Origin: an uncultured virus (IMG/VR IMGVR_UViG_3300006467_000155)
Taxonomy: Duplodnaviria; Heunggongvirae; Uroviricota; Caudoviricetes
Length of the DNA: 64,000 nucleotides
Direction: 5' to 3' (one strand)
IMG/VR virus record: IMGVR_UViG_3300006467_000155
Shown here piece after piece: positions 6,488 to 56,363 of the stretch. The position numbers were made by a program, and so were the translations under genes. The notes below the pieces were generated by a model. The model did not search any database and had not been told where the DNA came from. It was given only the letters and a program-made list of their open reading frames with translations. Numbering within the stretch: position 1 is the first letter of the stretch; each line of letters opens with the position of its first letter.

Positions 6488-6526
6488 CGGGTATCCCTCC
6501 TTGGGATGTATATTTGCTGTACTTTC

Positions 6527-6555
6527 AGTATCAACTACCCCCGGCAATTTGTCAA
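6527..6555 (-). promoter_or_regulatory. sigma70-like promoter P3
   Basis: TTGACA-N17-GATACT followed by the GAAAGTACAGCAAA leader. Confidence 0.85.
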
Positions 6556-6565
6556 ATAAAAGAAC

Positions 6566-6593
6566 AAAAAAAAGCCGCCCCCGCTGAGCGGCT
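6566..6593 (-). terminator. Intrinsic terminator at the end of the structural/lysis operon
   Basis: AGCCGC...GCGGCT stem followed by a T8 tract on the minus strand. Confidence 0.75.
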
Positions 6594-6595
6594 AG

Positions 6596-6609
6596 TGACA
6601 TTAATGTCA
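6596..6609. repeat. 14-bp palindrome copy (exact; extends to 18 bp AGTGACATTAATGTCACT)
   Basis: Supplies the stop of 6607..7122. Confidence 0.95.
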
Positions 6610-7122
6610 CTCAATGGATTGCACCCGAGAAACAAACCGGCACATACGAAGGAACTCCCCCGGTGCCGGGGTCTGGGAGAACTTAACACCGCAGGCCTCC
6701 CAGATACGCGCAACAAATGTTGAGCACACTATACCTCTAGTGCGTCTACGCTTACCTGTCAACTGATGCCACCACACACGGAACAGAGACAGGTAGCCAT
6801 ACTTGCTCTCTCGGTAGTGGAAGGCCAGCTCTCGGGCCACGTCTGGCTGTTGGTAGACCTTCTCTGGGGCGTACCCGATATACAGGTTGCCAGACTTGCT
6901 ACGCAGGTAATCATCTATCCATAGGGAGGCAGGCCGCAGGCGGTAGCCCACAAACTCCTTCATCTCTGCCACCCATAGGGTTTCATTGATCCAGATGAAC
7001 ACTGCCACATGGCTGATCTGCTGGGCCGTGAGCATCTTGATCAGTGTGCTCACGAACCCTTTGCCTTCACACAGAAGCAGGTCACCTGACTGGATATGTG
7101 GTCGCTCATCCAAGTACTTCAT
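6607..7122 (-). CDS. Permuted papain-like (NlpC/P60, YaeF/YiiX-type) amidase
   Basis: GDLLL, SHVAV (His), Y.Y, then CSTFVARIW (Cys): permuted order. Confidence 0.75.
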   Translation of the reverse strand: MKYLDERPHIQSGDLLLCEGKGFVSTLIKMLTAQQISHVAVFIWINETLWVAEMKEFVGYRLRPASLWIDDYLRSKSGNLYIGYAPEKVYQQPDVARELAFHYRESKYGYLSLFRVWWHQLTGKRRRTRGIVCSTFVARIWEACGVKFSQTPAPGEFLRMCRFVSRVQSIE

Positions 7123-7568
7123 CAGCCACTACCCTCCACTACGAGCTTGGCGGCGTCTTCGATCCAGAACAATACCTGAGACAGCTTTACCTTGTCTTCG
7201 GCATCGAGAACAGTATCGGTGTACCTCCGTTCGAGGTCTTCCCTCACTACGGTTATCACCTTGTCAATGAGACGCTGGTCGGCCAAGGCCATGGAGTCCC
7301 AATTGATCCGCATTCGGATTTCTTTTTCCACGGCCCTCAGGGTCACCGATTGATCCGAGTCAATTCCTTGTCGGACTTCCTTTACGATTTCCTGAGTTTT
7401 CTTGGCCCGGTCAACATCACCGTCCAGAACTCGCATAGTGGCCTGCTCAACCACAATCCACGCAGACAGAGGGTGCTCCTCCACCGCGTTCAGGACACTG
7501 CAACCGCTCATTAGCAGAGCCATGGTAATAGCCGTGAAGGCTACCCAGTACTTCTCCACACGTTTCAT
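7122..7568 (-). CDS. Lipoprotein in the lysis cassette
   Basis: Signal peptide with lipobox LLMSGC. Confidence 0.7.
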   Translation of the reverse strand: MKRVEKYWVAFTAITMALLMSGCSVLNAVEEHPLSAWIVVEQATMRVLDGDVDRAKKTQEIVKEVRQGIDSDQSVTLRAVEKEIRMRINWDSMALADQRLIDKVITVVREDLERRYTDTVLDAEDKVKLSQVLFWIEDAAKLVVEGSG

Positions 7569-7578
7569 GCTTCTCTCC

Positions 7579-8037: not shown

Positions 8038-8039
8038 GG

Positions 8040-8699: not shown

Positions 8700-8700
8700 A

Positions 8701-8726
8701 AAAATACCCGGGCTTTCACCCGGGCC
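8701..8726 (-). terminator. Hairpin / weak terminator between tail and lysis genes
   Basis: CCCGGG-TGAAAG-CCCGGG followed by TATTTT. Confidence 0.5.
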
Positions 8727-8732
8727 TACATC

Positions 8733-9101: not shown

Positions 9102-9111
9102 GATCTACCCC

Positions 9112-9522: not shown

Positions 9523-9532
9523 GGTTCATTCC

Positions 9533-11092
9533 TCATAAGTCAACATAGAGCTTGTTGGTCGTAACTACCACACTACGACCTTCGGTTAAAACTTCCAAAC
9601 TTTTTACCGGCCCGAGTACTGCCGGCTCCCCCGGGAATAGAGCAATCGCCATGTAATAGGTTGGCTCCATTACCAAAGACTGTAGCGCAAGCTGAGCATT
9701 TTGCGAGAGCGCCAGACGAGAAAGTTCTGGTGCAAGGTCGATCACCCCCGTACTCAGTTTGTGCGTTACTCCCATGGAAACCCGGGACACCTTGGGCTCC
9801 ACGACTACCGACTCACAGGACAAAGAGTGCTCCTGCACTACTGCAGCCGATGAGACATTTACCGATACAACCAGATTTTCAGTTTCAAGAATCTGCTGAG
9901 CACCCTGCCCCAAAGTCAGATCATTGACGGTCGGTGTGACATTAATGTCACTGGCGTCAAGTTCATGGGTCTGAGTCAGTGTTAGCCCAACAAACTGCGG
10001 TTCTACCTGAAGGCTCCCGGCCTCCAACAGGTGGTCTACCTGCAGGGTCACCACCGACAGGTCCGGCTCCATGACCAAGCCTTCCGCTGTGACTTGATGC
10101 TCCTGCACCATCACCGCGCCAGAAGTGGTCGGGACCATCCGTATGGAGGCTGGCACTATGGTATCCGTGACTATCTCCACGAGAGTCGGAGTGCTTACCA
10201 TGGGTTGCATCTGCAGACTGGCAACAGCGCCCTCGTGGGTCTGTCCAAGGGCAAGGTCGGTCACTGTCGGGGTTACCTGCAGTGACTCGCTTTCCAGTGC
10301 CGAGGTGTGAACCACGGATGCGGTGGATACCTCGGGCTCCATAGCCATGGATCGGGTATCAAGTACCTGTGTCTGGCTAAGGGTCAAACCCGAGACTTCC
10401 GGGACCACCTCAAGCGGTGCCGGCTGCATACTTCCCTGCTGCTCCACCTCGACACCAGACAGGGTGCCTTCCATGGCCAGAGAGTCTGTTGCCAGCCCAT
10501 GGGTCTGCACTGCCAAAGCGGTGGATACGGTAGGGGTAACCTGAAGGCTGCTGGCATCAAGAGCCTGAGTTTGGTTCAAGGTAAGGCCAGATACCTTGGC
10601 TTCCTGTACCAGTGATTCCGACACCATGCTGTGGTTCTGGGTAACCGCCACCCCAGATACCGTTGGGGTCATCTGCAGGGATTCTGACTCCACCTCGTGC
10701 GTGTTGGTCGCACTAATACCGGTGAGTGTCGGGGTCAGCTGAACCGACTGGGTATCAAGGCTATGAGCCTGTGACGCAGCCGCCTCAGACAGGGTTGGAG
10801 TAACCTGAATACTATCGGTTTCCAAAGCATGGGTCTGGCTCAGGCTCACACCGCTCACGGTGCCTTCCATCACCAAGCTATTGGTATTCAGGTTGGCCGT
10901 AGCCGAGATAGTGGTGAATGACTCCCACGCAGACCAAGCTGAGACGTTGGTTCCGTCATCCTCCTGAACCCGGAATTCATAGTCAGTCAGTTGGGTCAGC
11001 CCGGACAGGTTGTAAAACTCGTCCGTAATGTTCTCTACAAGAACCTCGTTCCCAACGTCACCAAGCTCCCGCCACTCAAGATTATAGGCCAT
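9533..11092 (-). CDS. Fibre protein: N-terminal partial FN3 domain + ~19 tandem 22-aa repeats
   Basis: ATG at 11092 (TAATG overlap); repeats such as QTHALETDSIQVTPTLSEAAAS / QAHSLDTQSVQLTPTLTGISAT. Confidence 0.75.
   Translation of the reverse strand: MAYNLEWRELGDVGNEVLVENITDEFYNLSGLTQLTDYEFRVQEDDGTNVSAWSAWESFTTISATANLNTNSLVMEGTVSGVSLSQTHALETDSIQVTPTLSEAAASQAHSLDTQSVQLTPTLTGISATNTHEVESESLQMTPTVSGVAVTQNHSMVSESLVQEAKVSGLTLNQTQALDASSLQVTPTVSTALAVQTHGLATDSLAMEGTLSGVEVEQQGSMQPAPLEVVPEVSGLTLSQTQVLDTRSMAMEPEVSTASVVHTSALESESLQVTPTVTDLALGQTHEGAVASLQMQPMVSTPTLVEIVTDTIVPASIRMVPTTSGAVMVQEHQVTAEGLVMEPDLSVVTLQVDHLLEAGSLQVEPQFVGLTLTQTHELDASDINVTPTVNDLTLGQGAQQILETENLVVSVNVSSAAVVQEHSLSCESVVVEPKVSRVSMGVTHKLSTGVIDLAPELSRLALSQNAQLALQSLVMEPTYYMAIALFPGEPAVLGPVKSLEVLTEGRSVVVTTNKLYVDL
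9937..9950. repeat. 14-bp palindrome copy (exact, intragenic)
   Basis: Encodes DINVT. Confidence 0.95.
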
Positions 11093-13027: not shown

Positions 13028-13098
13028 GGTTGAACTCCTTTCGAGGTTTTAGGTACTGCGACCCCCCAAGTCTGTTACCTCGATCCGGATATGTCCAG

Positions 13099-14601: not shown

Positions 14602-17600
14602 TTACCCTCCGGTATCCACCACGATAAATTGAACTGATTGCCCTACCGGAATCTGGACCTCATAGACCAAGGCCTCGACAGTGTAGGTTATGGTCGCCAA
14701 CCCGTACCCATAGTTCACGCTGGTATCTGAAGCATACACCCTCGGTGTCCGCGCTTCACCTCCAACCGCCCCGAGTGATGCAGAGTGCCATTCCACCACA
14801 TCTATACTAACTGCGGGGTACTCAAGGGATGCCTCCCCTTCGATGAACTCCACTTCTTGGGTTTCCTGACGAGACTGAACCCCAATGCGGGTAAGGAACA
14901 CGGCCCCGTTATTGATGGTGGGCTCGACTGTGATCTTGTCTCTCCAAGGCTGTGGGTAGACGAACAATTTTCCCCGATCATTGGCATCGTCAGATTTAAC
15001 AAGCTCAATGGTATCGGACAATGAACTTGGTAGCTCCCTGATGCGAATCCTGTTGATAACTTCCTCACCAGAAAGGAATTCTTGCTGGCTGAGGTTGTCG
15101 TCTTCATCTGTGAGAACAAAGTCAGCCCCTTCCACGGTCATGGCGTTCATAGCCACTGGATACAGATAGTTCACCACGAGGCTCCCATCCGGCTCGGCTT
15201 CCAGAACACCACCACAAGCCGAAACCACCCGCTCAACAGCATCCGCCTTGGTCACCCCACGAACAGCGAACCGGTAGGCCGGGATGTTCCAATCCAGAAT
15301 GTTCCAGACTACGGGTCGGCCAATAATGTCCTCCACCAAATCACGAGCACTGATAGCAGCTTCCTGTACCCGGGTAACCTGTGATGAGTTCAGGCTTAGC
15401 TCTCCGACAACAGGGCTCAATAGACCCAAGCTCATTGAATTTCTAACTTGGTCCGCCCGGTTCAATGACTTGGTGTCCACCTCAAGAACATAGGTTTCTC
15501 CGGCCATGTCCACAATCACTGAATCGCCTTTCTTGGCTCGAATATAATCAGCCACCTCACTCAGGCTCACGGTGCCTCTCCAACCCAACTCACCTTCATC
15601 CTCGGATACCTGCAAAGTATCAAACTCAACAGAAACCCCGGACAGGGTTACCGTGACTGAGTTAGAAGAAATGATGGGGCTATCGTCAACCAAGGTGTAA
15701 AAACTGCTATGCCTCTCGGCAACGCGCTCGGTGACATTAATGTCAAACCGGGTTTCAAGCTGAGCAGTCACGGTCACCAGATTCCCATATTTCGTCTCAT
15801 GGTGCCGTCCTGCCACCTGCCTAAGAACCCAACTACTTTCATGCTGAGCTTTCACAACAACAGAAGGGTCGTATTGGGTCTCGTGCCATTTAGACACACT
15901 TGGGGCATCACTATACAGTGTCTCGATCTGGGCCCTTACCCGAGGCGCATCCCCGTACTCTGACTGATTTTGTGCCAATACATTGGGGCTATCCCCGAAC
16001 AGAGTTTCATGCTGCCATGACAGGAACACCGACTGGCTGTAACTAGTTTCATGGAGCACGGTCAGGGAATTCATTAACAGGGTTTCGTGCTGGGCTGCGA
16101 CCAACAATCCCATCTTGGTCTCATGCTGGGCCGCCACCTTGATAGCATAGCCAGTCTCGTGCTTCGCCTTCACTTTCACATAGGCATCGGTATCCCACAC
16201 TGCGTTGTGGAATTCCATTATTGCCGAGTCCACCCTGTAGGTCTGGTTAAACTCTCGCTCTTTGATCATTGGTTCACCTCCATACAGGGCCAAGTCAATA
16301 TACTTCATCACTGCGTAGGCAACTGTGGCATCTTCATAGCCCTCCACTCCGCTACCCTGTACCAGAAATTCTAACCCCACAATGCCGTAGAGGTCTGATC
16401 CTTCTGGGCGCTCAATAGTGTAATTCCCATAGTGCCCCGGGGAGTTGCGCCAAAAATCAAACGCCTGTTCTGGGGTTATGTACGGGTAGTCTTCCGGATT
16501 GCTACTGATAACAGCAGCAAACATGATGTTCTCAGATGCCCATGAGTAGGGGGTGGCCAGCTTTTTAATCCGGCTGTAAACGGTCTCATAGCCTGCAGGG
16601 AACCCTGAAGATTCGTGGGCATAAATGTCGGTCTCTGCCATGTTACGGGCATGTCGAGTAGCAAGCTCCGGGAAGTTACCATACCAGTTCTTCAAGAAGC
16701 TGGTTCTTCCTTGGGCTGCTCGATCCGCATTCATCAGGTCCAGAATCTTAGGTATCCAATCCCACTGAGGGAGAGCCCACATCTGGTCAAATGAACCGCT
16801 TACTTCCCCAAGGCCCCACCTCTGGTTGAATTCTTTTTCCACCAGCTCCTTGGCTTCTATCTGCCATTCCTGATTGAACTCCCTCTCGACCAACTCAGTA
16901 TCCTGAGTGATCAGCTCCCATTCCATCTGGAATATCCGTTCATCCATGGGCACATCCAATACCCATAACTGATTGAACTCTTTTTCCGTTTTGATGGTTT
17001 GCCCGAGTCTGACAATAAACGGTATTTCTGTTATCGGACTGGCCGCCCCAACCCTCAAGTTAAATCCAACCTCGTGAAATATCGAATCTGCTATTGCCCC
17101 CCGTGGAACCACGACAGGCTGGATATCCATGTTCACCTCAGTTTCGGTGTTTAGCGTGACACTGGCACTGCCTCGGATAGGGTACTGGATTTCTGGGCTC
17201 TGGTTTCTGGTGGTTCTTTCCTGCCGTACTGAAGGCAGATTGAATGAAGGGAACCATCGTCCATCCAATTGATACACCGGAGCCTGCCCGCCAGTGTAGG
17301 TGGTTTCATGAAACGAAGTCGCCTTAGCCACGCCATACTGGCTTTCCAGAAAGTTCTGTGCTTTAGCAATGCCGTACAGGGTTTCATGCTGGCTGTTAAG
17401 GCTGTTCAGATAGGAATACGTTGTCTCGTGCTGCTTCAGTACAGGGAGCGGGGCCCCAACGTCCGGTAGCCGGGTGGTGTTGCTATATATGCCCTCTATC
17501 TCGGCCTGTGTCATCGGGCGGGTAACAATGCCCAAGTCCCACCAATCCGCTACGGCACTGCCACTGTTGTTACCCAGAGTTTGCAACCCACCGGACCCGC

Positions 17601-19850: not shown

Positions 19851-22198
19851 CAGGCCACCTCAAGATCGAGATCAGGGCATACATACAGGCTACTGCCGGT
19901 GTTCAAAACCAAGTCTACCAGCACCCATCCGACACCAACACCAGTCAAGGATATCTCTATCTTGAACCGCCTCTCGTTGGTGGGGTTGCCTCCAAGCCAC
20001 GATTCCCCGGATTCCTCAGTGACATTAATGTCACTCGTGACAGTATCATTACCTTGTTGGGCGTACTCACTAACCAAACGAGACCCGTCACTGTTTAAGT
20101 GCTGATATCGCAAACCTATTTCTTCTTCGGTAATGAGGGCTGGCTGTGACGACGCCCCTATCTCGACACAGTGAATCACGACAGTCCTATCCCCGCTGGT
20201 GCCATTCCATACCGCCAACTTCAGGGGTGAGAAAGCAAGCATCAAAGTGTTTTGCCAGCCGTGAGAAGTGGACTGCCCTGCTACAAGCAAAGACATTTGC
20301 TGGTTAGAAGCCGACCGGCCATTCTCCCGGTATACCACTTCACTGGGGGTAGCTGAGAACCACCCACAAGTTGAGTGCCCGCCCAGATCGGTAAGCGATT
20401 CCACATCAATCTGCATGAACCCGTACTGATTGTTGTCACTGGTTTCCGGGGTCATGTTCTGCTGGCTACCGCTACCAACAGATCGAACCTTTACAGCATT
20501 TGGGGTTATGGCCAGCCCAAACTTAGGGTTTGAGGTTACCTTGCAGCCTATGAGGCTGTAGCTTATCCGGGCACTGCCAATGGCATAGTTAACAGATTGC
20601 AGCCGGCTCTCTCGAAAGGTCATATCCCCAACCCCATAGGCCGGACCATATAGGTAGGCCTCGGAGGCAGTGTTGAGGGACAGGCCTTTTTCATCCGAAG
20701 TCAGGGACTTGTATCTGTTGATACTTACGTTGTAATCCCACGCATCCACCAGTGCATTCATCAGGACAAGCTGCCTTTCTTTTATCGTTCCGTGCTCCAT
20801 CAGCACGTTGCTGTCCTCAAATCGAACCCTGTCAGGCTTGGAAACAGACAGGTCAAGAATTCCACTGGCCTGCACCCCACTCAGATACAGCCTTTGGTAC
20901 CATGGGTTAAACCGCCCCAGAAGCCCTGTGAACCGCTTTACTCTCTCCCCTTCGTCGTTGTACCACTGATACCGGATTCGGGGCCCGTAGGGTACACGGT
21001 GCTGTGTTAGGAACGTGTCTGCCTTGGCTTCAAACCCATCCAGATTCCCCCCTTGAGGCAACCACAGAGTATCACCCCCTTTGACATAAGGGGCGGAGTC
21101 CTCTAACTGCTTGAACCCGTACTCACGCCTAGTTCCTGTTATCCTCCGCCAAACAACTGATCCATCAAAGGCCCACTCTTGCCGACCCGACCCCAAATCG
21201 AGATCGCTCAAGGGACCGTCATAGCAAATCCCCGGGCGGACACACTCAAGCAATAGTCGAGTGTCTTGGTCATACCGGATATCAAACTGAGACACTTGCT
21301 GCCCTGCAGTCCTCGGAGCATAACCGTACAGTTGATTTACTGATGAGTTAACCCACCACTCTCTTGCTTTCGCCCCACCAAAGACGAAAGACGATCCTTT
21401 TACGGTCTGCCTATGCAGGCGGTCAACTGAAGTTGCGAGACTGCGGTAAGCCACGGGCAACGCTTCTTTCCAAAGAGCCACCCAATAAATTTTGCCGGTA
21501 AAATTCTCGCCAGTAAGCGCATCCCCGGATCGGTGGGCCCCCACCAATACCTTATGGTCTTCCCATGTGGCGTTACCCAAACTGGTGGTAGACGCAGATA
21601 CATACTCGGACACAGATACCCCATGGGAGAGGAATTCAGATTTTATGCTGGTCGTTGACTCCACGGTGAACACACTGGAACTGCATACTCTCCGACCTAC
21701 CCCTAACTCGTGCTGGAAGTCATTAACAAACGGGTTCGAGATCAAGGAGTACTCCGAAGCTCCCCGAGGGTATCGCAAAATCGGGTCTCTGGTGTCGCCA
21801 TTCGTAGTCCCAAACCAAAATTTCTTGCGAGCATTGTTGTTCTCCTGCCAGCAAGAAACCACAACCTCTCTGTTACTGCCCCCGGCCTCGGGCTCGACAC
21901 AATACATGACGGTCATCTTGTCAATTTGACCTTGCCCGACCGGGTGATTTCCGGCATCTACCCAAGCATCAGGGCCACCTGAAAACTCCATATAAGGGAC
22001 TCCGAACGAGTCCACTTTAAGAACCACCCCGGCCCCCTTGGTGGTTTGGGCGTCAATACTGTGCTCCGTAGGGCTGGCCTGAACTTTCGCGTCTTCTTGC
22101 GTTGGGGCGAGCAGGAAGTCTGGGGCTGGAATACCCAGATCAGTGAATGACGTTAATGTCACTCCGGGGGGTTTCGGAACGCCATACTGGTGTCTCAT
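19850..22198 (-). CDS. Tail fibre/spike-associated protein (LamG-like N-domain)
   Basis: LVGAHR...NFTGKIYWVALWKEAL; C-terminal LYVCP.L shared with 18084..19850. Confidence 0.6.
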   Translation of the reverse strand: MRHQYGVPKPPGVTLTSFTDLGIPAPDFLLAPTQEDAKVQASPTEHSIDAQTTKGAGVVLKVDSFGVPYMEFSGGPDAWVDAGNHPVGQGQIDKMTVMYCVEPEAGGSNREVVVSCWQENNNARKKFWFGTTNGDTRDPILRYPRGASEYSLISNPFVNDFQHELGVGRRVCSSSVFTVESTTSIKSEFLSHGVSVSEYVSASTTSLGNATWEDHKVLVGAHRSGDALTGENFTGKIYWVALWKEALPVAYRSLATSVDRLHRQTVKGSSFVFGGAKAREWWVNSSVNQLYGYAPRTAGQQVSQFDIRYDQDTRLLLECVRPGICYDGPLSDLDLGSGRQEWAFDGSVVWRRITGTRREYGFKQLEDSAPYVKGGDTLWLPQGGNLDGFEAKADTFLTQHRVPYGPRIRYQWYNDEGERVKRFTGLLGRFNPWYQRLYLSGVQASGILDLSVSKPDRVRFEDSNVLMEHGTIKERQLVLMNALVDAWDYNVSINRYKSLTSDEKGLSLNTASEAYLYGPAYGVGDMTFRESRLQSVNYAIGSARISYSLIGCKVTSNPKFGLAITPNAVKVRSVGSGSQQNMTPETSDNNQYGFMQIDVESLTDLGGHSTCGWFSATPSEVVYRENGRSASNQQMSLLVAGQSTSHGWQNTLMLAFSPLKLAVWNGTSGDRTVVIHCVEIGASSQPALITEEEIGLRYQHLNSDGSRLVSEYAQQGNDTVTSDINVTEESGESWLGGNPTNERRFKIEISLTGVGVGWVLVDLVLNTGSSLYVCPDLDLEVA
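20020..20033. repeat. 14-bp palindrome copy (exact, intragenic)
   Basis: Encodes DINVT. Confidence 0.95.
22148..22161. repeat. Palindrome variant (intragenic, 1 mismatch)
   Basis: TGACGTTAATGTCA. Confidence 0.8.
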
Positions 22199-33739: not shown

Positions 33740-34350
33740 TCAACCCTGTGTCAGATTTTTGAAGTCTTTGTCCGAAGCCCACACTGCAGCTCGGATACTC
33801 GTCATCTCCATCTGATGATAAGAGGTCAGGCGCTTATTAGCCAGATCAGAAAACGCCATCAACTGTCTGAGGGTGTAGCGTCTGACTTCGCTCCACTGGT
33901 GTCCTTCGCTGATGAGGAATTCTGCTTGTTCTGCGAGAACAGCGTCCCAGCTTCTCTCACTTCTTGCATGTTGACGTTTCTGGCCGCCTCTAAAAGTCCT
34001 TGTAGGAGGTGGCTTACCGTCTTTCCCACATCCGCAGGCTTAACCCCAGACAGCTCCCAGATTTTTGATATTAATGTCACTTGATGACCCAGCGGGAGTT
34101 GCCGAGCAAGCTCAAGTTCGGTTGGGTTCTTGGTCCCATAAGCGATCACGGCAGCCGCCAGCTTGGGCGTGTCCTTTATGATCTCTCTGGGTGCGATCTT
34201 GCCCCCCAACAGGCCGTTCATGCTTTCAGAGTAATCCTTCAGCAGCAGGCCAATGTCTTCAAGGGTCAAGGGATAGACTGTGACTGTTTGGTTAGTGGCC
34301 CCGGGGAGGGTCACTTCCTCACCCCGGGACACCAGTTCAGCAAGACTCAT
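33740..34350 (-). CDS. Tail assembly chaperone GT (programmed -1 frameshift product)
   Basis: G GGA AAG slippery site at 34021-34027; the -1 frame is open to TGA at 33740 (…FLISEGHQWSEVRRYTLRQL…). Confidence 0.85.
33859..34350 (-). CDS. Tail assembly chaperone G
   Basis: Lies between tail tube and tape measure. Confidence 0.85.
   Translation of the reverse strand: MSLAELVSRGEEVTLPGATNQTVTVYPLTLEDIGLLLKDYSESMNGLLGGKIAPREIIKDTPKLAAAVIAYGTKNPTELELARQLPLGHQVTLISKIWELSGVKPADVGKTVSHLLQGLLEAARNVNMQEVREAGTLFSQNKQNSSSAKDTSGAKSDATPSDS
34066..34079. repeat. Palindrome variant (intragenic, 1 mismatch)
   Basis: TGATATTAATGTCA. Confidence 0.85.
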
Positions 34351-36951: not shown

Positions 36952-36965
36952 TGATATTAATGTCA
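36952..36965. repeat. Palindrome variant (1 mismatch)
   Basis: TGATATTAATGTCA; supplies the stop of 36963..37256. Confidence 0.85.
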
Positions 36966-37676: not shown

Positions 37677-38633
37677 TTAGCCGATGTTGGTGTACTTCAC
37701 AACGGCTTCTTCTTCCTCGTACTTGAAGTCAACCCGGGCAGTCAGAACGATCACGAAGACACGCTCAGTGATGATCTTATCGACTTCCAGAGAAAGCTGG
37801 CGCTGGATACCGAAGATCATGTTCTGCGGCGGAGTCAGGATGCCACTTGCTTCCGGCATCAGAGCTGCACCTTCAACAGGCACACCGTGCGCGTAGGTCA
37901 TGGGCACACCATTGATGTTCGCATCACCAATGGCGGTCTCACGGGACGCCAGACTGTCGCGGTACTCGATGTGGTTGTTGTGCGAGACGAAGTTGCGAAT
38001 CGCGGTCAGGTTACGCAGATATTCTTTCGGCATGGTTTTCAGGCCGTTCTTGAACATCGTGCGGCTGATCGGAGAGTTCGCCACGTCTACCACGTTGCTG
38101 GTTGCTTGCTTCAGGAAACCGTCCAGCATACCAAGGTATGCGTCGGTACCTGAGACAGCCGTGTCACCCAGCAGGGCCAGTTCTTCCAGATCGAGGGCAG
38201 CACGCTCTGCGATCAGGTCGATGATGGTGTCCTTGATACCACCAGACACAGGCTGAGGTGAGGAGTTTGCACCGGCAGCGTTGATGTTGCCCTGCTCGAT
38301 GTTGTCCTCGATCACGTCATACGGCAGGCGGATTTCAGCGATCACTTCCTTGGTGTTCAACTGAACCTGCTCAGTGCTTGGCTTGCTGCGATCTGATTCG
38401 CTCAGCGCCGTGGCACTGGTGGCCTTACGCATGATGCGAGTGCCGAAACCGATCTTGTTGATGTTACGCTGAGGAGCGTTCATCACCACGGTACGAGACT
38501 GGCGCAGAAGCGTGGGCTGCAGACGCAGTTTGCGGATGAAGGAATTGGCCTGCTCGGCGTTAAGGGCCCCGCCCGATGCCAGATCGGAAAGGGTCATGTC
38601 CGCCTTCTGGATAATTTGGCTGTTGCTGCTCAT
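37677..38633 (-). CDS. Major capsid protein (HK97 fold, XkdG-like)
   Basis: GG.LNAEQANSFI, KIGFGTRI, IEDNIE, DLEELAL.GD, DGFLK. Confidence 0.9.
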   Translation of the reverse strand: MSSNSQIIQKADMTLSDLASGGALNAEQANSFIRKLRLQPTLLRQSRTVVMNAPQRNINKIGFGTRIMRKATSATALSESDRSKPSTEQVQLNTKEVIAEIRLPYDVIEDNIEQGNINAAGANSSPQPVSGGIKDTIIDLIAERAALDLEELALLGDTAVSGTDAYLGMLDGFLKQATSNVVDVANSPISRTMFKNGLKTMPKEYLRNLTAIRNFVSHNNHIEYRDSLASRETAIGDANINGVPMTYAHGVPVEGAALMPEASGILTPPQNMIFGIQRQLSLEVDKIITERVFVIVLTARVDFKYEEEEAVVKYTNIG

Positions 38634-40632: not shown

Positions 40633-41055
40633 CTACCAGTTTGACATTAATGTCACTTGCTCAATGGCGTCATCGAGGGTTGGGATAGGCGGGTATAGCG
40701 TGGGACGGAGGTCTTTCAGGTGGAAAGGCAGGCACTTGTGAAGCCCCAGTACCTTTCGTATCTCCGCTATTTCCTGATGGGGAACATCGTGTTTGTAGCT
40801 CAGGTATCGGTAGGTGTAATCCCGGTGGGCTCGCTTCAACAACCGGTAATAACGCAGGAAGATTAATATGGTTCGGTACTGCAGGAAATTCAGGCTCTTT
40901 GGGCGCTCCCGGTAGCACTTTTGGAGCGTGGGTTGGGATACTCCGATAACCTTCGACAGGTGTACCGGAGTGTACTGGACTATGAGTTCTTTTATGGCGT
41001 TCCCGATCAGCATGTCTTCGATCAGGGCTTGCCGTTTAGTTTCCGGGAGTCCCAT
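40633..41055 (-). CDS. HTH-containing protein
   Basis: LSKVIGVSQPTL; LQYRTI..FL shared with 41231..41764. Confidence 0.6.
   Translation of the reverse strand: MGLPETKRQALIEDMLIGNAIKELIVQYTPVHLSKVIGVSQPTLQKCYRERPKSLNFLQYRTILIFLRYYRLLKRAHRDYTYRYLSYKHDVPHQEIAEIRKVLGLHKCLPFHLKDLRPTLYPPIPTLDDAIEQVTLMSNW
40642..40655. repeat. 14-bp palindrome copy (exact)
   Basis: In the last codons of 40633..41055, upstream of the head operon. Confidence 0.95.
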
Positions 41056-41764: not shown

Positions 41765-41973
41765 CAGTAGAATTCCTCCAACTCCCAGATTCCCATATTG
41801 ATCCGGTAGTGGTTGGCCAGCAATACAAAGATTCTGAGACTCGGGTTCTCCGGTGGGTTGTCTCGCCAGTTGAGCAGGGTGTTGTAGGAACACCCCAAAT
41901 CCTCAGCTAAGTCCTGAAGGCACTCCCCCTGCAGGTTGCGGGTTATGAGTGCCATAGCCTCCCGGCGTTTCAC
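41764..41973 (-). CDS. Small XRE/Cro-like HTH protein
   Basis: LQDLAEDLGCSYNTLLNW....NPSL....LA. Confidence 0.75.
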   Translation of the reverse strand: MKRREAMALITRNLQGECLQDLAEDLGCSYNTLLNWRDNPPENPSLRIFVLLANHYRINMGIWELEEFY

Positions 41974-42248
41974 TTGGCCAACTCCTCAGCAAGGGCTTGC
42001 TTTACCCGGGCAGCCATTTCACGCTGCTCCTCGTCCTTGGCATCCAGCTTGAAAATGCAGATGCCCGGGGCGTCCGGGGTGCCACTGACAACAGCTACCG
42101 GATCACCCATCACGTCATTGTGAAACCGGGCGTCTTCGATCATCTCGAACACGGCAGGCTGCGACTTGGGGGTGGCCACACACGTACCACTGAAAAACTC
42201 GTGCTTGGCTTGCGGGTTTTTGCTGATGTAAAAGACCTTGGTTTCCAT
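41970..42248 (-). CDS. Hypothetical early protein
   Basis: ATG after the P4 hairpin RBS. Confidence 0.65.
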   Translation of the reverse strand: METKVFYISKNPQAKHEFFSGTCVATPKSQPAVFEMIEDARFHNDVMGDPVAVVSGTPDAPGICIFKLDAKDEEQREMAARVKQALAEELAK

Positions 42249-42287
42249 GTGCTTCCCTCCTTGGGAATGATTGGTTGCTGTACTTTC

Positions 42288-42316
42288 AGTATCGTTCAGC
42301 CCCACAAATTTGTCAA
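42288..42316 (-). promoter_or_regulatory. sigma70-like promoter P4
   Basis: TTGACA-N17-GATACT. Confidence 0.85.
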
Positions 42317-42324: not shown

Positions 42325-42338
42325 TGACATTAATGTCA
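42325..42338. repeat. 14-bp palindrome copy (exact)
   Basis: 8 bp upstream of the P4 -35; supplies the stop of the upstream gene. Confidence 0.95.
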
Positions 42339-44917: not shown

Positions 44918-45316
44918 TTATTCTTCGTCAGTGATGAAGTCCAGCATGGACTGCAGGGATTCCCGGGAGCGGGATTTCCCCTCCCGGCTGTACTCCGACA
45001 CCATGTTATGGGCCATGCCAGTAGAGCAGAGGTTATCCCGGTTCTTGAGAAGCTGGTCTGTGACCATATCCAGTTCATCCCGCAGATGCTTCAAGAAGTC
45101 AGGGTGCTCAATGTCACCACCGGCACTGGCCAAGGTCTTCTTCAGGCGCATGAAGGGCTCTGCTTCGGTCTGCTTGGTGATCATCTGCTGGGACAACCAG
45201 CCAATGGCGTGGACCGGGTTATTGTCCAGTGCCTTCATCATCTCGGCTTTCACGTCCTCGAAGTCTTGGATTCTCAGGTGCATCTGGATTTCGATGGTCT
45301 GCTTCTTGTTGCTCAT
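44918..45316 (-). CDS. Hypothetical early protein
   Basis: ATG after the P5 hairpin RBS. Confidence 0.65.
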   Translation of the reverse strand: MSNKKQTIEIQMHLRIQDFEDVKAEMMKALDNNPVHAIGWLSQQMITKQTEAEPFMRLKKTLASAGGDIEHPDFLKHLRDELDMVTDQLLKNRDNLCSTGMAHNMVSEYSREGKSRSRESLQSMLDFITDEE

Positions 45317-45355
45317 ATCCTGTCCCTCCTTGGGATAGTGTTTTGGTGTACTTTC

Positions 45356-45384
45356 AGTATCGTTCACCCGGGATAATTTGTCAA
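45356..45384 (-). promoter_or_regulatory. sigma70-like promoter P5
   Basis: TTGACA-N17-GATACT. Confidence 0.85.
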
Positions 45385-45391: not shown

Positions 45392-45405
45392 TGACATTAA
45401 TGTCA
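45392..45405. repeat. 14-bp palindrome copy (exact)
   Basis: 7 bp upstream of the P5 -35; supplies the stop of 45403..45783. Confidence 0.95.
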
Positions 45406-46712: not shown

Positions 46713-48373
46713 ATCAGAGTCAGGCAGTTTTTCCATGTCAGTGTCCCACGCCCCGTACAGCATGTCGGGCCACTTATGACCACAGGCCCATGTGTGTCCG
46801 GGTTCCAGCTTAACAAATGCCCTATCCCCGGTGTCATTTGGTGCCTCACTCATAGGTGCTTCCTGTCCGTCCCGATGATCGTGGGTCATATAGAATCGCT
46901 CAAACCCGACAATGGTGCCTGTTCCATGTGGGACTTTCACCCGGTCACCTTTCTTGTATTCAGAGAGTTTCATCAGTCTTCCTTCTTGGGTTATCGGTAA
47001 GCTCGCTTAGGAAGCTCTACTTCCTCGACCCGCAACACCGTGTCCACCTTAGGGTTCAGGTTGTCGTCCGCAAGCTCAAACACCGGGGCCATATAATAGA
47101 GTTCCTGTATCTCGCACTGCTCTGCTATGGCGTTCCAGATTTTGTGGTAACCCCCCGGCTGCGTTCCTTGTGGGGTTTTCCAGCCGTTCAGGAAGCCAGT
47201 GTAGAGGATGCTCCGAAACACCGGGTTGTGAGGGCTGTGCGCCACGTCCACGATGTAATAACTGTTCTCTTTCCACCCGCCTTCAGGCTGGAAGATGGTT
47301 GGCTTGGTCATGCCGGCGTCCACCGGGGTTTCGTGTTTCTTGAGGGTACGGGTCATTCTGCCTCCTACAGGCTCAGGTGAAGTTGGGTGTTCTGCTCAAT
47401 GTCTTTCTTGAGCATGTCGGCGTACAGGCCATAAGACTGGGCCACTTCAATGATCTTGCCCCCGTAAAGCCTGAAGTACTCCACGTCATAGAGGTCTTGG
47501 TCGGTCAGCATGATCTTTATGTGACTGACCTTCCCCTTCTCCGGGTGCTTTCCTTTGATCTTGAATTGCACCCCTTTCTTGATCCCTACGAAAGCAGTGG
47601 CCCCGGTCATGGCAATGAAGCGGGTGCCTCCGAGTTGTTCAACGATGGTTTGGGCTATCTGGGTATCGCTCACGGTCCTCTCCTTAGCTTACCGGTGTGA
47701 ATCTTGAGGCGTGTGCCCCGATTTCTTTGCCCTCGTCGTCTCGCACGATCACGAATGGACGATCCGGGAATATGCCTTCCTGCCAGTCCACCACTTCGTA
47801 CACCTTGCCAGTGGTCAGTTGGTAGTCATACCCGTTCATGCAGCGCAGATGGGTCACGCCTTTCAGGGTGGTCACCCCGCTCATGGAGGGTTGTTTCAGA
47901 ATTGCTTTCTCTAACGCTGGGCTGAGTAGCATTGCTCTCTCCTTAGTTTTCCCACTCTACCGGTATGCGGGGGCCATGATTTTCTCTTGGTGGGAGTCTC
48001 ACAGTGGAAGCCCGGTTCTGCTCCACACTTAGGGCAAGTTACCTGCCTCACTGCGTCACTGGATGCCCACCCTGTCATCGGCCCCCCAACAATGTGTCTC
48101 GGGGTTGGATTGTCTGGGGTCCAACCTATGTACTTAATAGCCATGGCTCTCTCCTTAGGCTGCCATCTGGGTCATGTAGTGAACCGGGCGCTCATAGATG
48201 CCGCACTCACTGCGGTACACGCTGATCATCCGCATCTTGCTTCCGTCTTGGACGAATACCCGGCAGGTCTCGCCGTAGTTGACGTTCTCCCCCAGTGGCC
48301 AGAGACCGACCAGTTCTTCGGAGGCCAGAGCTTCGTTAAGGGTTTGGAACCAGTTGCGTTTGGATTCTTTCAT
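46692..48373 (-). other. Run of six small hypothetical genes (46692..46973, 46991..47356, 47365..47673, 47684..47932, 47911..48144, 48155..48373)
   Basis: Contiguous minus-strand ORFs with RBSs downstream of P7. Confidence 0.6.
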
Positions 48374-48412
48374 CTTGAGCACCCTCCTTGGGTATGTATT
48401 TGCTGTACTTTC

Positions 48413-48441
48413 AGTATCGTACAACCATCAGGATTTGTCAA
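48413..48441 (-). promoter_or_regulatory. sigma70-like promoter P7
   Basis: TTGACA-N17-GATACT. Confidence 0.85.
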
Positions 48442-50871: not shown

Positions 50872-50881
50872 TGGTCTTCTC

Positions 50882-52208: not shown

Positions 52209-52209
52209 C

Positions 52210-52491
52210 TTACTCTCCATGGTATTGCCACAGCACCGCATTGCATTTGGCATGGACTGCGCCAATGGTCATGCCGGTCTTGTGGTCGTGGTGCAGGTGC
52301 ACAGGGTTGTTGAAGAATCCCGGGGGAAACAGGTTCTTGTTGATAACCTTCTTGGCCATGTCAGGCCGTGGGCCTCCCCCGAGGGTGAATCCGCAGTGCC
52401 AGCACTTACCCTTCTGCTTGCTTGCGTATTCCATCCGGGCCGCCTTACGGGCCCGGGCATTGGCAGTTGTGTAATTAATCGGCAGTTCCAT
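52210..52491 (-). CDS. Endonuclease VII / His-Me finger-like protein
   Basis: QKGKCWHC...VHLHHDHKTG..IGAVHAKCN. Confidence 0.7.
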   Translation of the reverse strand: MELPINYTTANARARKAARMEYASKQKGKCWHCGFTLGGGPRPDMAKKVINKNLFPPGFFNNPVHLHHDHKTGMTIGAVHAKCNAVLWQYHGE

Positions 52492-52781
52492 TACTGGCCT
52501 CTCAGTTTGGTGAAGCGGTCAATGTCACGTTGCACCCAGTACTCGTTGATTCCCTCCGAGACAATCGCCTGACAGATCAGTAGATTGGCTTCCTCGTACC
52601 GGCTGTCGTGCAGGTAGTGGCTGTCCATGATGTAGCCCACGACTTCCAAGTTGGTTTCCGGGGCTTCTGGGTCACCGATAATCTCCCAGTGGAATATGTC
52701 ACGGAAGGCCTTGACAATAACTTCGCGGGCTTCTTGGGAGAACACGGCATCTACTGGACTGGTTGGGTTGAGTACGTGCAT
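52491..52781 (-). CDS. Hypothetical early protein
   Basis: ATG after the P8 hairpin RBS. Confidence 0.6.
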   Translation of the reverse strand: MHVLNPTSPVDAVFSQEAREVIVKAFRDIFHWEIIGDPEAPETNLEVVGYIMDSHYLHDSRYEEANLLICQAIVSEGINEYWVQRDIDRFTKLRGQ

Positions 52782-52819
52782 TTCCTTTCCCTCCTTGGGA
52801 ATTGATTTTCTGTACTGTC

Positions 52820-52848
52820 AGTATCGTTCAGTGCTTATAGTTTGTCAA
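52820..52848 (-). promoter_or_regulatory. sigma70-like promoter P8
   Basis: TTGACA-N17-GATACT. Confidence 0.85.
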
Positions 52849-52855
52849 ATAAAAA

Positions 52856-52869
52856 TGACATTAATGTCA
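52856..52869. repeat. 14-bp palindrome copy (exact)
   Basis: 7 bp upstream of the P8 -35; supplies the stop of 52867..53178. Confidence 0.95.
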
Positions 52870-55800
52870 CTCTGGGTACAGGTACTGGTAGACCGTCAGG
52901 CCCCGCATGATCATGAAGGTCCATGTCAGCCTGAGTTCTGCTGGCTGTTCATCAATGAACTTCATCATCTCCGGTAGGTGGCTGGGCAGGTCTTTGGTGG
53001 GGTTACCTTCCAAGTCCAACGTCTGACAGTTATACCGGGTGCCATTATCACTCTCCGGATAGGGGACTTCCCCACACTCCAACCGTATCTCCCGATCTAC
53101 TATTCGGAAGTAAAGCTCATACACCTTTTCGCCTGCCGGCATTTTCTCGATCAATTTGTATATCTGTTTCACAGTCAACCTCCAATCTTGTTGGGTAGCT
53201 CTAACTGGGCAAGGCGGTTCTCAAGCTCCTGCAGCTTTTCAAGGATGTGGACCGTCACCTGTTTCTGGTCTTCCTCAGGCACCAAGTGGGGCAACCCACA
53301 ACTCGGGCAGAGAATATGCCCCTCAGCCACGTCAATCAGTTCTTGGGTGGTGCCGGGCTCAATAGCCTGTTTACAAAACGAGTACTGGCATAGCATACGA
53401 ACACTCATAACCTTCCTCCCGGCTTTCGCTTCAGTCTGCGTTTCTTGGGTTTCTTGCGCTTGCGTCCGATCATTCCCTGATCGTAGTCCTGCAGGTCGCT
53501 CCTGTCCGCCAGTGCCTTTACTTCTGTATGGGCTGCCTCGATCAGGGCCTTGGCCATGGCCGCGTTCAGAGTGCGTATACCGGGTCTGGCTCCTCCCACC
53601 ACGAGCACTTGCTTGTCCTCGTCAATCATACCCACCCCCACCGTGTCAGGTTCACCCACACACCCAGTGCAGTCATCATGCCCGTTACACTGATCAAGAG
53701 CAGGCCTACATACACCTTGCGCCGGTAGCTTGGGATGTTGACCCGGTAAGTGGCCCTCAACCACCAGCCGGTCAAGTACAGGCTTTTCATAAACAGGTGC
53801 GCCATCAGGGTGGTAGAAAGCACCAGTATCACACTCAGAATCGAATCTTCTATCACAGCTTGAAGTCCTCGAAGTATTTGTCCATATCGCCCCCGAACGT
53901 CTCGTGCAGGGTGTCCCACTGCATCTGGCTCAGGGAACCGGTGTGCTCTGATGGGCTACCGTCCTTCTTGAGGACAGGGCCGCTCACCCGCCACGTTGGG
54001 ATGCGGTCAGTATAGTCAGTGTCCACCGTGATCTTACGGACCTCCATGGTCTTGCCTTGGTGAGCTTTCCTGAGGATGGTGGTCTTGTCTCCAACCTTTA
54101 AGGGGCACTCCTGCTTGGCGTACTCCCGCGCAAGCTCATTGAAGGCCACGGTGGCTTTCCGCATCTTGTCTCGGGCCTTTCTCAGGTGGTCCTTGGTGAT
54201 CTTCTCCACAATAGGCTCATTACTGACTTCCCGGGTGCTGAACTTGAACGTCCCGGGTATCTTCTGGTCATTGCCGAACTGGACTACCACCACCCCCTCG
54301 TTGGTGCCCCCCACCACGAATCCCTTGGCATTCTTGAACCCTCCACTGGCATTCACGTACACCGGCTCCATGGGGCCTAAGGTCTTTTCTTTCTGGCCGC
54401 CAGCCGGGAACACCGGGTACTCGGGCTCACCATCGCGGTGCTGTCCCTTGTAATAGAGGTCGGCTTCCCCACACAGGACATGCCTCATAGTGTGATCTGG
54501 GTCAAGGATGCAGTAATGGTCCTTGGTGTTGGCTAACCGGTAAAGCCTTCGGTCCATCGTGTCTCGGCCCAAGTCCATCAGGTTGTTTACCAACCCATGC
54601 AGGCTGTTGAATTTCTTTGGTTCAGTCATAGTATCAACCCTTTCGCACATTGGCCGAAGGCACACCCGCAATCTTTGGGTTGTGTCTCGGTCCCGTCTTC
54701 ATGAATGATCCACTCGCTGTAGTGCTTTGACTTGGAATCACAACGGCAGTAGTCAGTGTCCTTTTCGTCATTCCCCCACAGTGGGGTTTTTTGACCACCA
54801 TCTGATGAAACAGGGTAGCCTGACTCACCGATGGCTTTAGCAATAGCTGGGAGCATATCTGCTTCCCAAATCTCCCCGTCCATTTCCTGTTGGATATGGG
54901 CAATAGTGGCTTCCAACTTGATATGACGATCTACCAGATCAAGCAACCATTGCTCATTGACCAGCCTTACCCCTTTCAGCAGGACTTCATTGGTGTAGTC
55001 CTCGCAGCCACTTCCGGGGAACTCCTCATCAATATCATGGTTAAGGAAAGGCCCGTAGAGCTGCAGACTCTTGGTGGTCTTGAGTTCGAGTTCCTTATTT
55101 AGCTTCTCACTTGGTGTCATAGCTTCTTCGCCTTCTCGTACTGGTCCAAGGTCATGCCATCGCCCCGGTATTTCACGCCCACCTGCTTGGCCACGGCACG
55201 TCTGACTTTGTTCTCCCGGCAGAACTTACACAGATGATCAACTTCACTGGCATAGCCCTTGCCGCATTGGCATTTCATTCTGCGTATCTCCATTGGATGT
55301 TTCGGTAGGTGTACCCCTCGGCAAAGCTCTTGAAGGACTGCCTTGCCGCCGCCCGGTGGTCAGGAACAATGTGACTTCCGGGGACAAAGGCCGGCTCAAG
55401 TTCGGACAGGGGGGTGGCTGTCTCTGGCGTTCCGTCCAGTGAGAAGTAACCATCCCCGTTGTTGTAGACGGTCATGTGATATGGCTTGTTCCAGACCTTT
55501 ACGGTCTTGACCATGACCGGGGTTCCATCAGGCCAGCGTCTCATCAGTTTCTCCTTGTCCTTGCTACCAACAGGTACACCTGACCAATCCCTATTAAGCA
55601 TTGAATCAACAGGCCTTGAATAACGTCCAGTTGGGTACCGTGAAGTAAGGCTACCACCCCGACAAAAACCATAATCACCTGCAGACCCAGCAATACGTCC
55701 TTCATCAGTTTCTCCGCATCTTGGCAATGTCCTCGGCCTCACTCTGGTCAAAGATCGGGACAAGGTTGGATTTGTGCATCATGCCGATACCCTTCAGCCG

Positions 55801-56323
55801 GTCCCCGGTGTAGCGCAGGGGCTCACGGTAGCTGCAGTCGTGTGCTTGGGTATCCAGTGAAGGGTACTCGGTCGTTTCCCTTTTGTAGGGCTTCGGAGAG
55901 CTTGGTAGGTGGTCTGGCCGCTGATTGGTGAGGCCCAGACCCCGGTTGATGGATTCAAGTCTCTCACGCTCCGCCTTGGCTCTCTGCTGCTGTTCTTGGC
56001 GGAGCCTTGTCTTCTGGGTCTTGGTCAGTTTCTTGGCCATCTGCTGCTCCCAAGGACCGGTCTCAGAACCGGCCCAGTGCCACGGCGATTTCGTCATGTC
56101 CAATGTGCTGGCGGATGTACCCGTCAGCGTGGAGGGCGCTCATATTCCCAACAATATCAAAAGCATAGGCAACGAGGTCATGCTTCTGAGATTTGATCTG
56201 CATCACCCACCCGTTCTTCACGTCTTTGTGGTTGTCATCCACTCGGGCGTGTGGAGTGCCCATCTGGCGATCTTCTTTGACGGTCTTGATGAAGTTGTTG
56301 ATCTGGGTCTTGGTGACTTTCAT
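52867..56323 (-). other. Run of ~11 small hypothetical genes downstream of P9 (incl. 52867..53178, 53175..53408, 53853..54629, 54626..55120, 55705..56040, 56063..56323)
   Basis: Coupled minus-strand ORFs; 55705..56040 has a YTG..LKGIG.MHKSN.VP motif I recognise from other phage hypotheticals. Confidence 0.6.
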
Positions 56324-56363
56324 CTGCTTACCCTCCTTGGGTATTTATGTGCTTGGTACTATC

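Follow-up and report, generated by a model that had tools for sequence, protein, structure and literature searches.

Covarying hairpins over ribosome-binding sites of an uncultured tailed phage and its relatives: possible operators of a phage CsrA-type translational regulon

The window analysed here is a 64 kb stretch of DNA (53.7% G+C) from an uncultured tailed phage (IMG/VR record IMGVR_UViG_3300006467_000155), in which nearly all genes lie on the minus strand. Six genes of the window are preceded by a short hairpin that displays part of the Shine-Dalgarno (SD) sequence in its loop, and hairpins of similar design, with other stems, recur at the ribosome-binding sites (RBSs) of phages that encode homologues of the window's divergent CsrA-like protein, termed P0001. 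That a real, selected RNA hairpin exists at these sites we regard as very likely. Judging from the sequence features described below, the hairpins might be CsrA-type translational operators read by P0001 itself; we assign this reading a probability of about 0.38.

All six hairpins reported in an earlier note on this DNA could be located on the minus strand at the positions it listed (Table 1). They have stems of 4-5 bp, an AAGGA loop and calculated stabilities of -4.9 to -6.2 kcal/mol, and in each leader the loop and the 3' arm together constitute the SD sequence AAGGAGGG, 6-8 nt ahead of the ATG. The hairpin belongs to the minimum-free-energy fold of all six leaders when 45 nt are folded and of five when 75 nt are folded (the one at 48380 being found at 45 nt only). 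A hexaloop register would give only 2 pairs at these six sites, as against 4-5 for the five-base loop. The common 11-mer CCCAAGGAGGG has seven exact matches in the window, all on the minus strand, compared with a chance expectation of 0.05 on average and 1 at most; none of 100 shuffles reached seven. The list in the earlier note was thus correct and one copy short: the seventh match, at 6277-6287, is the RBS of the second gene in the operon of promoter 6527, stands without a promoter and forms three G-C pairs only, the next outer pair being a C-A mismatch.

As the earlier note had also stated, each of the six hairpins occurs in the first gene behind a promoter. The distance from the -10 hexamer is 20-22 nt. 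Assuming that transcription starts about 7 nt past that hexamer, the leaders would be 32-34 nt long. The spacers between the -35 and -10 hexamers vary freely among the six promoters. The window contains ten promoters of this TTGACA-N17-GATACT class, every one on the minus strand, and the hairpin is present behind six of them. The proteins encoded by the six first cistrons share no relationship (the best similarity has an E-value of 0.034 over 11 residues), which implies that the conserved element is regulatory and not a by-product of gene duplication. Rfam gave no match at the gathering score over the whole window, on either strand.

The outer part of the stem is where the copies differ. Of the seven sequences, four have U-A next to CCC/GGG, two have A-U and one is unpaired there; at the following pair, three have U-A, one A-U and one U-G, and two are unpaired. 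The covariation score is 0.214, compared with 0.084 in shuffles, and slid controls gave 0.02-0.10. The compensatory changes claimed earlier are present at both outer pairs, with a thin statistical margin inside the window, as 7 of 500 shuffles reach the observed score. Among candidate ribosome sites in the window, the combination of a five-base loop with four Watson-Crick pairs was found at 6 of 275, against 1.4 expected (3 of 500 shuffles reach this number).

Additional sequence of the same phage did not extend this comparison. A 93.5 kb metagenome contig and two IMG/VR fragments (G001 and G002) match the window near letter-for-letter and carry the same promoters and hairpins, so that they supplied the rest of the genome and no independent covariation. 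In the whole phage we counted about 18 promoters of the class described above, and CCCAAGGAGGG is still found behind only six. Phage records contained no near-identical match to 8 kb of the window, a scan of sequence collections for the 14-mer GATACTGAAAGTAC gave chance-level matches only, and pattern scans of these collections for the promoter and hairpin hit only the window's own phage. At the protein level, the major capsid protein shares about 55% identity with its counterparts in Vibrio phage PG28, Stenotrophomonas phage DLP5 and Rhodobacter phage RcZahn. PHROGs put names to about 26 of the 95 open reading frames (ORFs) scanned, including the large terminase, protease, capsid, tail and tape-measure genes; the remainder, with almost all of the small ORFs, stayed unnamed.

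Two further sets of SD hairpins were seen in this phage. Outside the window (L147/G001 near 14016; G002 near 13566), promoters are accompanied by SD-loop hairpins with quite different stems, namely CCAC-AAAGGA-GTGG, TCAC-GGAGG-GTGA and GGCAA-(16 nt incl. AAGGAGGG)-TTGCC. Inside it, the RBS of the major capsid gene (37677-38633, minus strand) can pair as AAATC-AGGA-GATTT, with five pairs and a four-base loop, a single case.

For independent covariation we turned to more distant phages. Scanning IMG/VR with a 14-sequence alignment of the P0001 family yielded 14 loci, one of them from the window's phage; the other 13 encode P0001 homologues with 26-45% identity (two of these loci are identical to each other and three overlap). 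The covariation set comprised 13 loci, L156-L158 and L160-L169, i.e., 12 viral loci plus the RcZahn locus (L169), with L159 omitted as a duplicate of L158. As a precaution against selection bias, sites were chosen irrespective of their flanks, by taking every CANGGAGG with an ATG or GTG 3-11 nt downstream that opened at least 60 codons. This procedure gave 46 distinct sites.

The relatives' ribosome sites are often hairpins of the form xxC-ANGGAG-Gxx, whose outer stems differ. The pair just outside the invariant closing C-G is formed at 45 of the 46 sites (CG 29, AU 9, UA 4, GC 3) and the next pair outward at 38, with five pair types, while the two pairs further out are at chance level. Covariation across relatives, which the earlier note had named as a check on its proposal, is strong: the score is 0.494 compared with 0.130, none of 500 shuffles reaches it, and slid registers give 0.05-0.11. 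Equally, an NNGGAG hexaloop with three Watson-Crick pairs was present at 40 of 212 candidate RBSs, against a mean of 5.3 after exchange of the 5' arms (0 of 1000 exchanges reach 40). Stems of at least 4 pairs occur at 32 of 189 GGAG sites in candidate RBSs (16.9%) and at 65 of 1320 GGAG sites elsewhere (4.9%). Whole contigs behaved in the same way (G003, 11/91; G004, 16/105; G005, 9/32), each count being reached by none of 500 shuffles. In eight controls, five random viral contigs with no Pfam CsrA match plus phages lambda, T7 and SPP1, only 6 of 343 sites carried such hairpins and no control exceeded the arm-swap expectation. A looser test over all combinations of GGA and ATG, in which false starts diluted the signal and single loci showed nothing, was abandoned for the stricter ones reported here.

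The element also changes between phages at one and the same gene. The dikinase gene just upstream of the P0001 homologue, with products 41-52% identical to the window's protein (E ≤ 1e-145), has eight different stems at its RBS: CACC/GGTG, TAC/GTA, ACC/GGT, TCC/GGA, GGCC/GGCC, AACC/GGTT, GCC/GGC and CA/TG. Similarly, the site of RcZahn gp10, the orthologue of the window gene at 671-1687, reads AACC-AAGGAG-GGTT. In Vibrio phage J26, whose CsrA-like protein has no AP...R motif, we found no hexaloop hairpin among 10 sites and stems of at least 3 pairs at 5 of 40 annotated starts; in PG28, where the motif is kept, the latter count was 5 of 20 starts. This contrast, with motif loss going together with fewer hairpins, is suggestive, the numbers being too small to count as an association.

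DLP5 (L174) presents a variant of its own. A fixed extended RBS motif, CA-ATGGAG-TG (once TA-ATGGAG-TA), precedes at least eight candidate starts, seven of which are annotated starts (3747, 7588, 9462, 12561, 13073, 18955 and 19326) and which include the dikinase and phosphatase genes. The motif corresponds to the same hexaloop with an A-U closing pair.

Could such hairpins work without any protein? A cis-acting structure might temper or time an over-strong 8-nt SD, pre-organise the SD in a loop or shield a short leader from RNases, and so set the rate of first-cistron translation behind very strong promoters. The window's hairpins would suit this role, as their stability and their presence in all six 45-nt folds should allow them to compete with the 30S subunit, they are confined to a single strong promoter subclass, and their loop is the SD itself. 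In the relatives, however, 37 of the 46 sites have stems of 3-5 pairs with a hexaloop, mostly 3-4 bp, with a median stability of only -2.1 kcal/mol and 9 of 46 sites at 0 or above, yet these stems are clearly under selection. Stems as weak as these would alone alter ribosome access little, and selection on such weak pairing fits a protein that clamps the stem-loop. Moreover, the eight control phages, including SPP1 with its strong SDs, do without such a design. We view a protein-free hairpin as rather unlikely, and as the alternative that fares best.

The protein fold that suggests itself is that of CsrA, given that the anatomy of the element, a GGA in the loop of a short hairpin lying over the SD, is that of a published CsrA/RsmE site, as the earlier note had recognised. 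The passages of PMC7652899 drawn on here report that selection from random RNA pools (SELEX) yielded the CsrA consensus RUACARGGAUGU; of 55 ligands, 51 presented the GGA in a hairpin loop and 44 had a six-base loop, and the stems mostly did not exceed 4 bp. They further describe the ANGGAN hexaloop of RsmE targets such as hcnA, the glgC leader as another CsrA site, and repression through an occluded SD sequence; L4 and R44 are given as critical for RNA binding by CsrA, dimeric CsrA is said usually to bridge two sites, and very stable structure to be possibly disadvantageous for its binding (PMC7652899). Compared with this description, the C-ANGGAG-G sites of the relatives agree in their ANGGAN hexaloop, short stem and SD overlap. 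The sites in the window agree except in loop size and stem strength, their loop having five bases (AAGGA) closed by three G-C pairs. Other differences are that the predicted sites lie here on phage messages and that three of the six leaders hold a single GGA.

P0001 itself is best understood through its family. An exhaustive search collected 121 clusters at E ≤ 1e-3, almost all of them 90-105 residues long, and 104 of these were aligned, the 17 dropped being longer than about 115 residues, repetitive or partial matches. Ninety of the 104 aligned members match Pfam CsrA at E ≤ 0.01 (best 5.1e-8), and when the PDB was searched with the family profile the top ten structures were only CsrA, RsmE and RsmN/RsmF (best 1y00, E 1.2e-4). 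In the ESM Atlas, P0001 falls among mostly viral clusters of about 100 residues, in which 12-69% of members have a Pfam CsrA match; PHROGs offers a family neither for P0001 nor for any of the six first-cistron proteins. The near-invariant positions of the family are M1, L3, G68, A82, P83 and R90. In the alignment to E. coli CsrA, A82-P83 correspond to A36-P37 and R90 to R44, and I5 (consensus L) aligns with L4, within an N-terminal stretch that is weakly aligned (4.7 bits). On this alignment, P0001 appears to retain the positions matching L4 and R44 of CsrA.

The AlphaFold model of P0001 (mean predicted local distance difference test score, pLDDT, 93.7) consists of eight strands and a C-terminal helix, compared with five strands and a C-terminal helix in the CsrA fold; about 38 extra N-terminal residues form four strands. 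CsrA proper is a chain of about 60-70 residues that makes an interlaced homodimer carrying two RNA sites. Pseudomonas aeruginosa RsmA (chain 1vpz_A) superposes on residues 39-101 of the model with a root-mean-square deviation of 1.5 Å over 57 of 57 residues (Z 5.1, 23% identity), and other structural matches were RsmN chain 4kji_A (Z 4.4) and 5dmb_D (Z 3.9). We infer from the model that P0001 may be a CsrA chain with some 38 N-terminal residues added that supply the strands which, in CsrA, the partner subunit gives, a layout that could leave one complete RNA face per chain. The earlier identification of this ORF as related to CsrA holds, on the strength of the Pfam matches of the family, the profile search of the PDB and the superposition with RsmA.

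If P0001 reads the hairpins, events would run as follows. Host RNA polymerase would start at the six near-identical sigma-70-type promoters and produce messages whose A/C-rich leaders measure some 33 nt. Close to its 3' end, each leader would form a stem of 4-5 bp, made up of CCC/GGG and one or two A-U pairs that covary, in which the GGG of the SD AAGGAGGG is paired and which exposes AAGGA in a five-base loop. A CsrA-fold protein, most likely P0001, would grip the loop and the stem and exclude the 30S subunit, resulting in less translation of the first cistron. Transcription starts, early timing, binding and the direction of the effect are all inferred parts of this scheme. We favour it because the weak yet covarying stems of the relatives argue for a protein clamp, and because a protein of the cognate fold, its contact residues conserved, is encoded nearby.

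Several observations count against P0001 as the reader. The protein scores only 20.3 bits against Pfam CsrA (PF02599; E 5.4e-4), below the gathering cut-off of 27 bits and over residues 69-97 only; its chain is 40 residues longer than that of CsrA, and R6 and R7 of CsrA, two residues with a role in RNA binding, are replaced by G6 and V7. The Z-score of 5.1 with RsmA can reflect a common arrangement and ranks below those of unrelated beta-sandwiches (Z 7.4), and a Foldseek search of the PDB with the model gave no match at E ≤ 0.001. The stems in the window, at 5 bp and about -6 kcal/mol, have the stability to function unaided, the loop is one of five bases, and hexaloops show no enrichment in the genome of the window's phage (4 of 147 against 2.5; 249 of 1000 shuffles reach this). 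A second GGA within about 12 nt is found in only three of the six leaders (52787, 45323 and 42253) and is absent from the other three, though a single-site protein would need none. AAGGAGG is, besides, simply a strong SD, so that the loop sequence by itself is not diagnostic. The presence of the element behind only six of about 18 promoters likewise limits the reading as a regulon. Finally, the relatives were found through their P0001 homologue, which makes the co-occurrence one by construction, with unrelated control phages as the only contrast.

The P0001 gene has no such hairpin at its own RBS and stands behind a promoter (5612-5640) of the same class as those of its supposed targets, which also weighs against the scheme. 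Given the shared promoter class, no temporal switch is evident behind the earlier note's idea that early genes are switched off in this way; the label "early" itself draws only on the sigma-70-type promoters and small ORFs. What stands of the proposed phage CsrA-type regulon is the anatomy of the site, the relationship of P0001 to CsrA and the covarying ANGGAG-loop hairpins at RBSs of phages that bear a homologue.

Host CsrA/RsmA might be the reader instead, in which case the phage would couple its translation to the state of the host Csr system, or abundant leaders would soak up the host protein. The site does match the bacterial CsrA/RsmE consensus given in PMC7652899, the six strong promoters would be expected to yield abundant leaders, and a correlation between RsmA homologues in phages and RsmA-bearing hosts is reported by Campa et al. 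2021 (PMC8450108). Each leader, however, offers one strong site, while dimeric CsrA usually bridges two (PMC7652899, as above). In addition, protein homologues and hairpin RBSs both occur in Rhodobacter and Rhizobium phages. A chromosomal CsrA is not a known feature of these hosts. Within a phage the stems are uniform, and between phages they differ (TAC/GTA in G004; GCC/GGC and ACC/GGT in G003; AACC/GGTT in L167; CA/TG in DLP5), a pattern that neither favours nor excludes a host reader. Overall, we hold a host reader to be improbable.

Less probable still is some other trans-acting factor, either an endoribonuclease that cuts at GGAG in the SDs of early messages, as T4 RegB does, or an unrelated translational repressor of the phage. 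GGAG is indeed exposed in or next to the loop in early-type messages, and few of the phage's small ORFs could be assigned a function, leaving room for such a protein. None of the 95 scanned ORFs, however, matched a nuclease family of this type at E ≤ 1e-5 in what was a general scan and not a targeted search, and a cognate CsrA-fold protein with conserved RNA-binding positions offers a simpler account.

A role at the DNA level, as a mobile PeSL-like promoter cassette for recombination, an operator for a DNA-binding dimer or a terminator of antisense transcription, seems very improbable: the promoter-leader cassette is repeated before unrelated small genes, as are the PeSLs of T4-type phages (PMC2839356), and three copies look terminator-like on the plus strand, but symmetric compensatory changes are what RNA pairing, and not protein-DNA reading, would predict, the relatives' element tracks ribosome sites and start codons (the 16.9% against 4.9% given above), the terminator reading was rejected, with 19 terminator-like hits in the region against 18.9 in shuffles, and the stem has only 5 bp.

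With P0001 again taken as the preferred reader, the system can be set beside known ones. The passages of PMC8450108 concerned with phage-borne RsmA/CsrA describe proteins highly similar to the bacterial forms and discuss them as acting on host genes; orf23 of Burkholderia phage CSP3 is another phage-borne homologue (PMC10269572). P0001 resembles these in being encoded by a CsrA-related gene on a phage, and J26 ORF99, annotated as 'CsrA' (PMC12038007), lies in the same dikinase - CsrA-like - phosphatase order. P0001 differs in being divergent, 102 residues long and below the Pfam cut-off, and in that its proposed targets are the phage's own ribosome sites. The PeSL cassettes of T4-type phages, as presented by Arbiol et al. 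2010 (PMC2839356), likewise combine a repeated strong sigma-70-like promoter with a stem-loop among small non-conserved genes, but PeSL stem-loops are terminators, whereas the hairpin described here lies over the SD, 20-22 nt past the -10 hexamer, and lacks a U-run on the coding strand. A full-text literature search, with subscription journals outside its scope, turned up no report in which SD hairpins of phages are connected with a CsrA-like protein of the phage.

The general logic has precedents in phage translational control. T4 RegA, the operator hairpin of T4 gp43, T4 RegB with its cleavage at GGAG, and the operator of the MS2 coat protein all resemble the proposed system in that a phage-made protein shuts off translation at a small RNA element of the ribosome site, while the proteins and RNA motifs are unrelated. 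To our knowledge, none of the four uses a CsrA fold or an ANGGA loop.

P0001 is part of a conserved set of genes. In the window, the module spans 671-5580 on the minus strand and encodes a PPDK_N/PEP-utiliser dikinase-like protein of 706 residues, proteins of 154 residues, 102 residues (the CsrA-like P0001) and 164 residues, a DSP/PTP phosphatase-like protein of 170 residues and a protein of 338 residues; the window's dikinase gave no Pfam match for a C-terminal PEP/pyruvate domain. The CsrA-like gene always stands in the same order, after the PEP-utiliser dikinase and before the PTP-type phosphatase and a gene of about 340 codons, and the module is syntenic in RcZahn, RHph_TM16, DLP5, PG28 and J26. 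The DLP5 protein DLP05_139 matches the P0001 family profile with 98.5% probability, and the PG28 homologue, in which the AP...R motif is kept, with 96.6%; J26 ORF99 is the positional orthologue of P0001, with a weak profile match (70% probability) and the motif lost. Since orthologues of P0001 exist in cultured phages (RcZahn gp7, DLP5 gp139 and RHph_TM16 EVB27_132), direct testing is possible.

Table 1. Positions of hairpins, promoters, genes and palindromes in the 64 kb window
Feature	Position	Strand	Remarks
SD hairpin TACCC-AAGGA-GGGTA	56329..56343	minus	leader of gene 56063-56323; 5 bp, -6.2 kcal/mol
SD hairpin TTCCC-AAGGA-GGGAA	52787..52801	minus	leader of gene 52491-52781; 5 bp, -6.0 kcal/mol
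SD hairpin TACCC-AAGGA-GGGTG, outer U-G	48380..48394	minus	leader of gene 48155-48373; -5.7 kcal/mol
SD hairpin TCCC-AAGGA-GGGA	45323..45335	minus	leader of gene 44918-45316; 4 bp, -4.9 kcal/mol
SD hairpin TTCCC-AAGGA-GGGAA	42253..42267	minus	leader of gene 41970-42248; -6.0 kcal/mol
SD hairpin ATCCC-AAGGA-GGGAT	6493..6507	minus	leader of gene 6293-6487; -6.2 kcal/mol
Seventh CCCAAGGAGGG copy	6277..6287	minus	internal RBS of gene 6070-6270; 3-bp stem, -3.9 kcal/mol
Shifted variant TTCC-CAAGGA-GGAA	56700..56713	minus	RBS of gene 56412-56696, second gene behind promoter 57103
Weak variant CTC-ATGGA-GGG, one U-G pair	1695..1705	minus	leader of 338-aa gene 671-1687
Promoter TTGACA-N17-GATACT	56364..56392	minus	drives the leader with hairpin 56329
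Same-class promoter	52820..52848	minus	
Same-class promoter	48413..48441	minus	
Same-class promoter	45356..45384	minus	
Same-class promoter	42288..42316	minus	
Same-class promoter	6527..6555	minus	preceded by a terminator-like GC hairpin and T-run
P0001, divergent CsrA-fold protein, 102 aa	2683..2991	minus	candidate reader of the hairpins
PPDK_N/PEP-utiliser dikinase-like gene	3460..5580	minus	first gene of the P0001 operon; orthologues in relatives have a hairpin RBS
DSP/PTP phosphatase-like gene	1781..2293	minus	same conserved module; Pfam and synteny
TGACATTAATGTCA copies	1770-1783, 6596-6609, 9937-9950, 15732-15745, 20020-20033, 22148-22161, 28415-28428, 34066-34079		
TGACATTAATGTCA copies, continued	36952-36965, 40642-40655, 42325-42338, 45392-45405, 52856-52869, 56401-56414, 57136-57149, 61699-61712		

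The promoter regions hold further repeats. An inverted repeat, TACT-GAN-AGTA, spans the -10 hexamer and the presumed transcription start at all six hairpin promoters, where the sequence reads GATACTGA[A/T/C]AGTAC (e.g., 6519-6532 and 42280-42293); it is missing or degenerate in the window's four other promoters, and may represent a second operator, at the DNA level. A 14-bp palindrome, TGACATTAATGTCA, has 12 exact copies and 4 copies with one mismatch in the window, against 0 expected. It adjoins the -35 hexamer on the upstream side at most promoters, occurs also within tail and other structural ORFs with a spacing of about 2-6 kb, and is likely the binding site of a dimeric DNA-binding protein, candidates being a ParB-like protein (60795-61634) and a 164-aa ORF (2229-2723) whose DLP5 counterpart is annotated as 'transcriptional repressor'.

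The leader of the promoter at 57103-57131 (57040-57100, minus strand) is unlike the others. It has a strong 5'-terminal hairpin of about -14 kcal/mol, and downstream of this a UCUUU is predicted to pair with the AAGGA of the SD.

Extending the P0001 reading to the wider group is more tentative. A group of siphophages of about 80-100 kb, with named hosts in Rhodobacter, Rhizobium, Stenotrophomonas and Vibrio, might run its own CsrA-type regulon, composed of a long viral CsrA-fold protein, perhaps a single-chain 'one-and-a-half' CsrA with one complete RNA face, and of A(N)GGA(G)-loop hairpins on the RBSs of 10-30% of candidate genes. The gene for this CsrA-fold protein invariably lies between those for a PEP-utiliser dikinase and a PTP-type phosphatase, a pair that might control or modify the activity of the protein or its RNA targets.

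CsrA/Rsm control is a central post-transcriptional system of bacteria, and the CsrA homologues of phages have so far been discussed as manipulators of host genes. Even if the hairpin acts alone, there would still be a clear, lineage-wide structural tuning of ribosome sites. If P0001 does read it, these phages would possess a translational regulon of their own that is complete in itself and follows the CsrA principle. Nature would have furnished it with a whole series of operators, in which loops of five or six bases sit on many stems, and with a single-chain form of the fold that is new. Such a finding would provide a conserved, unannotated family of at least 121 sequence clusters with a function, and synthetic biology with the parts of a compact protein-RNA switch.

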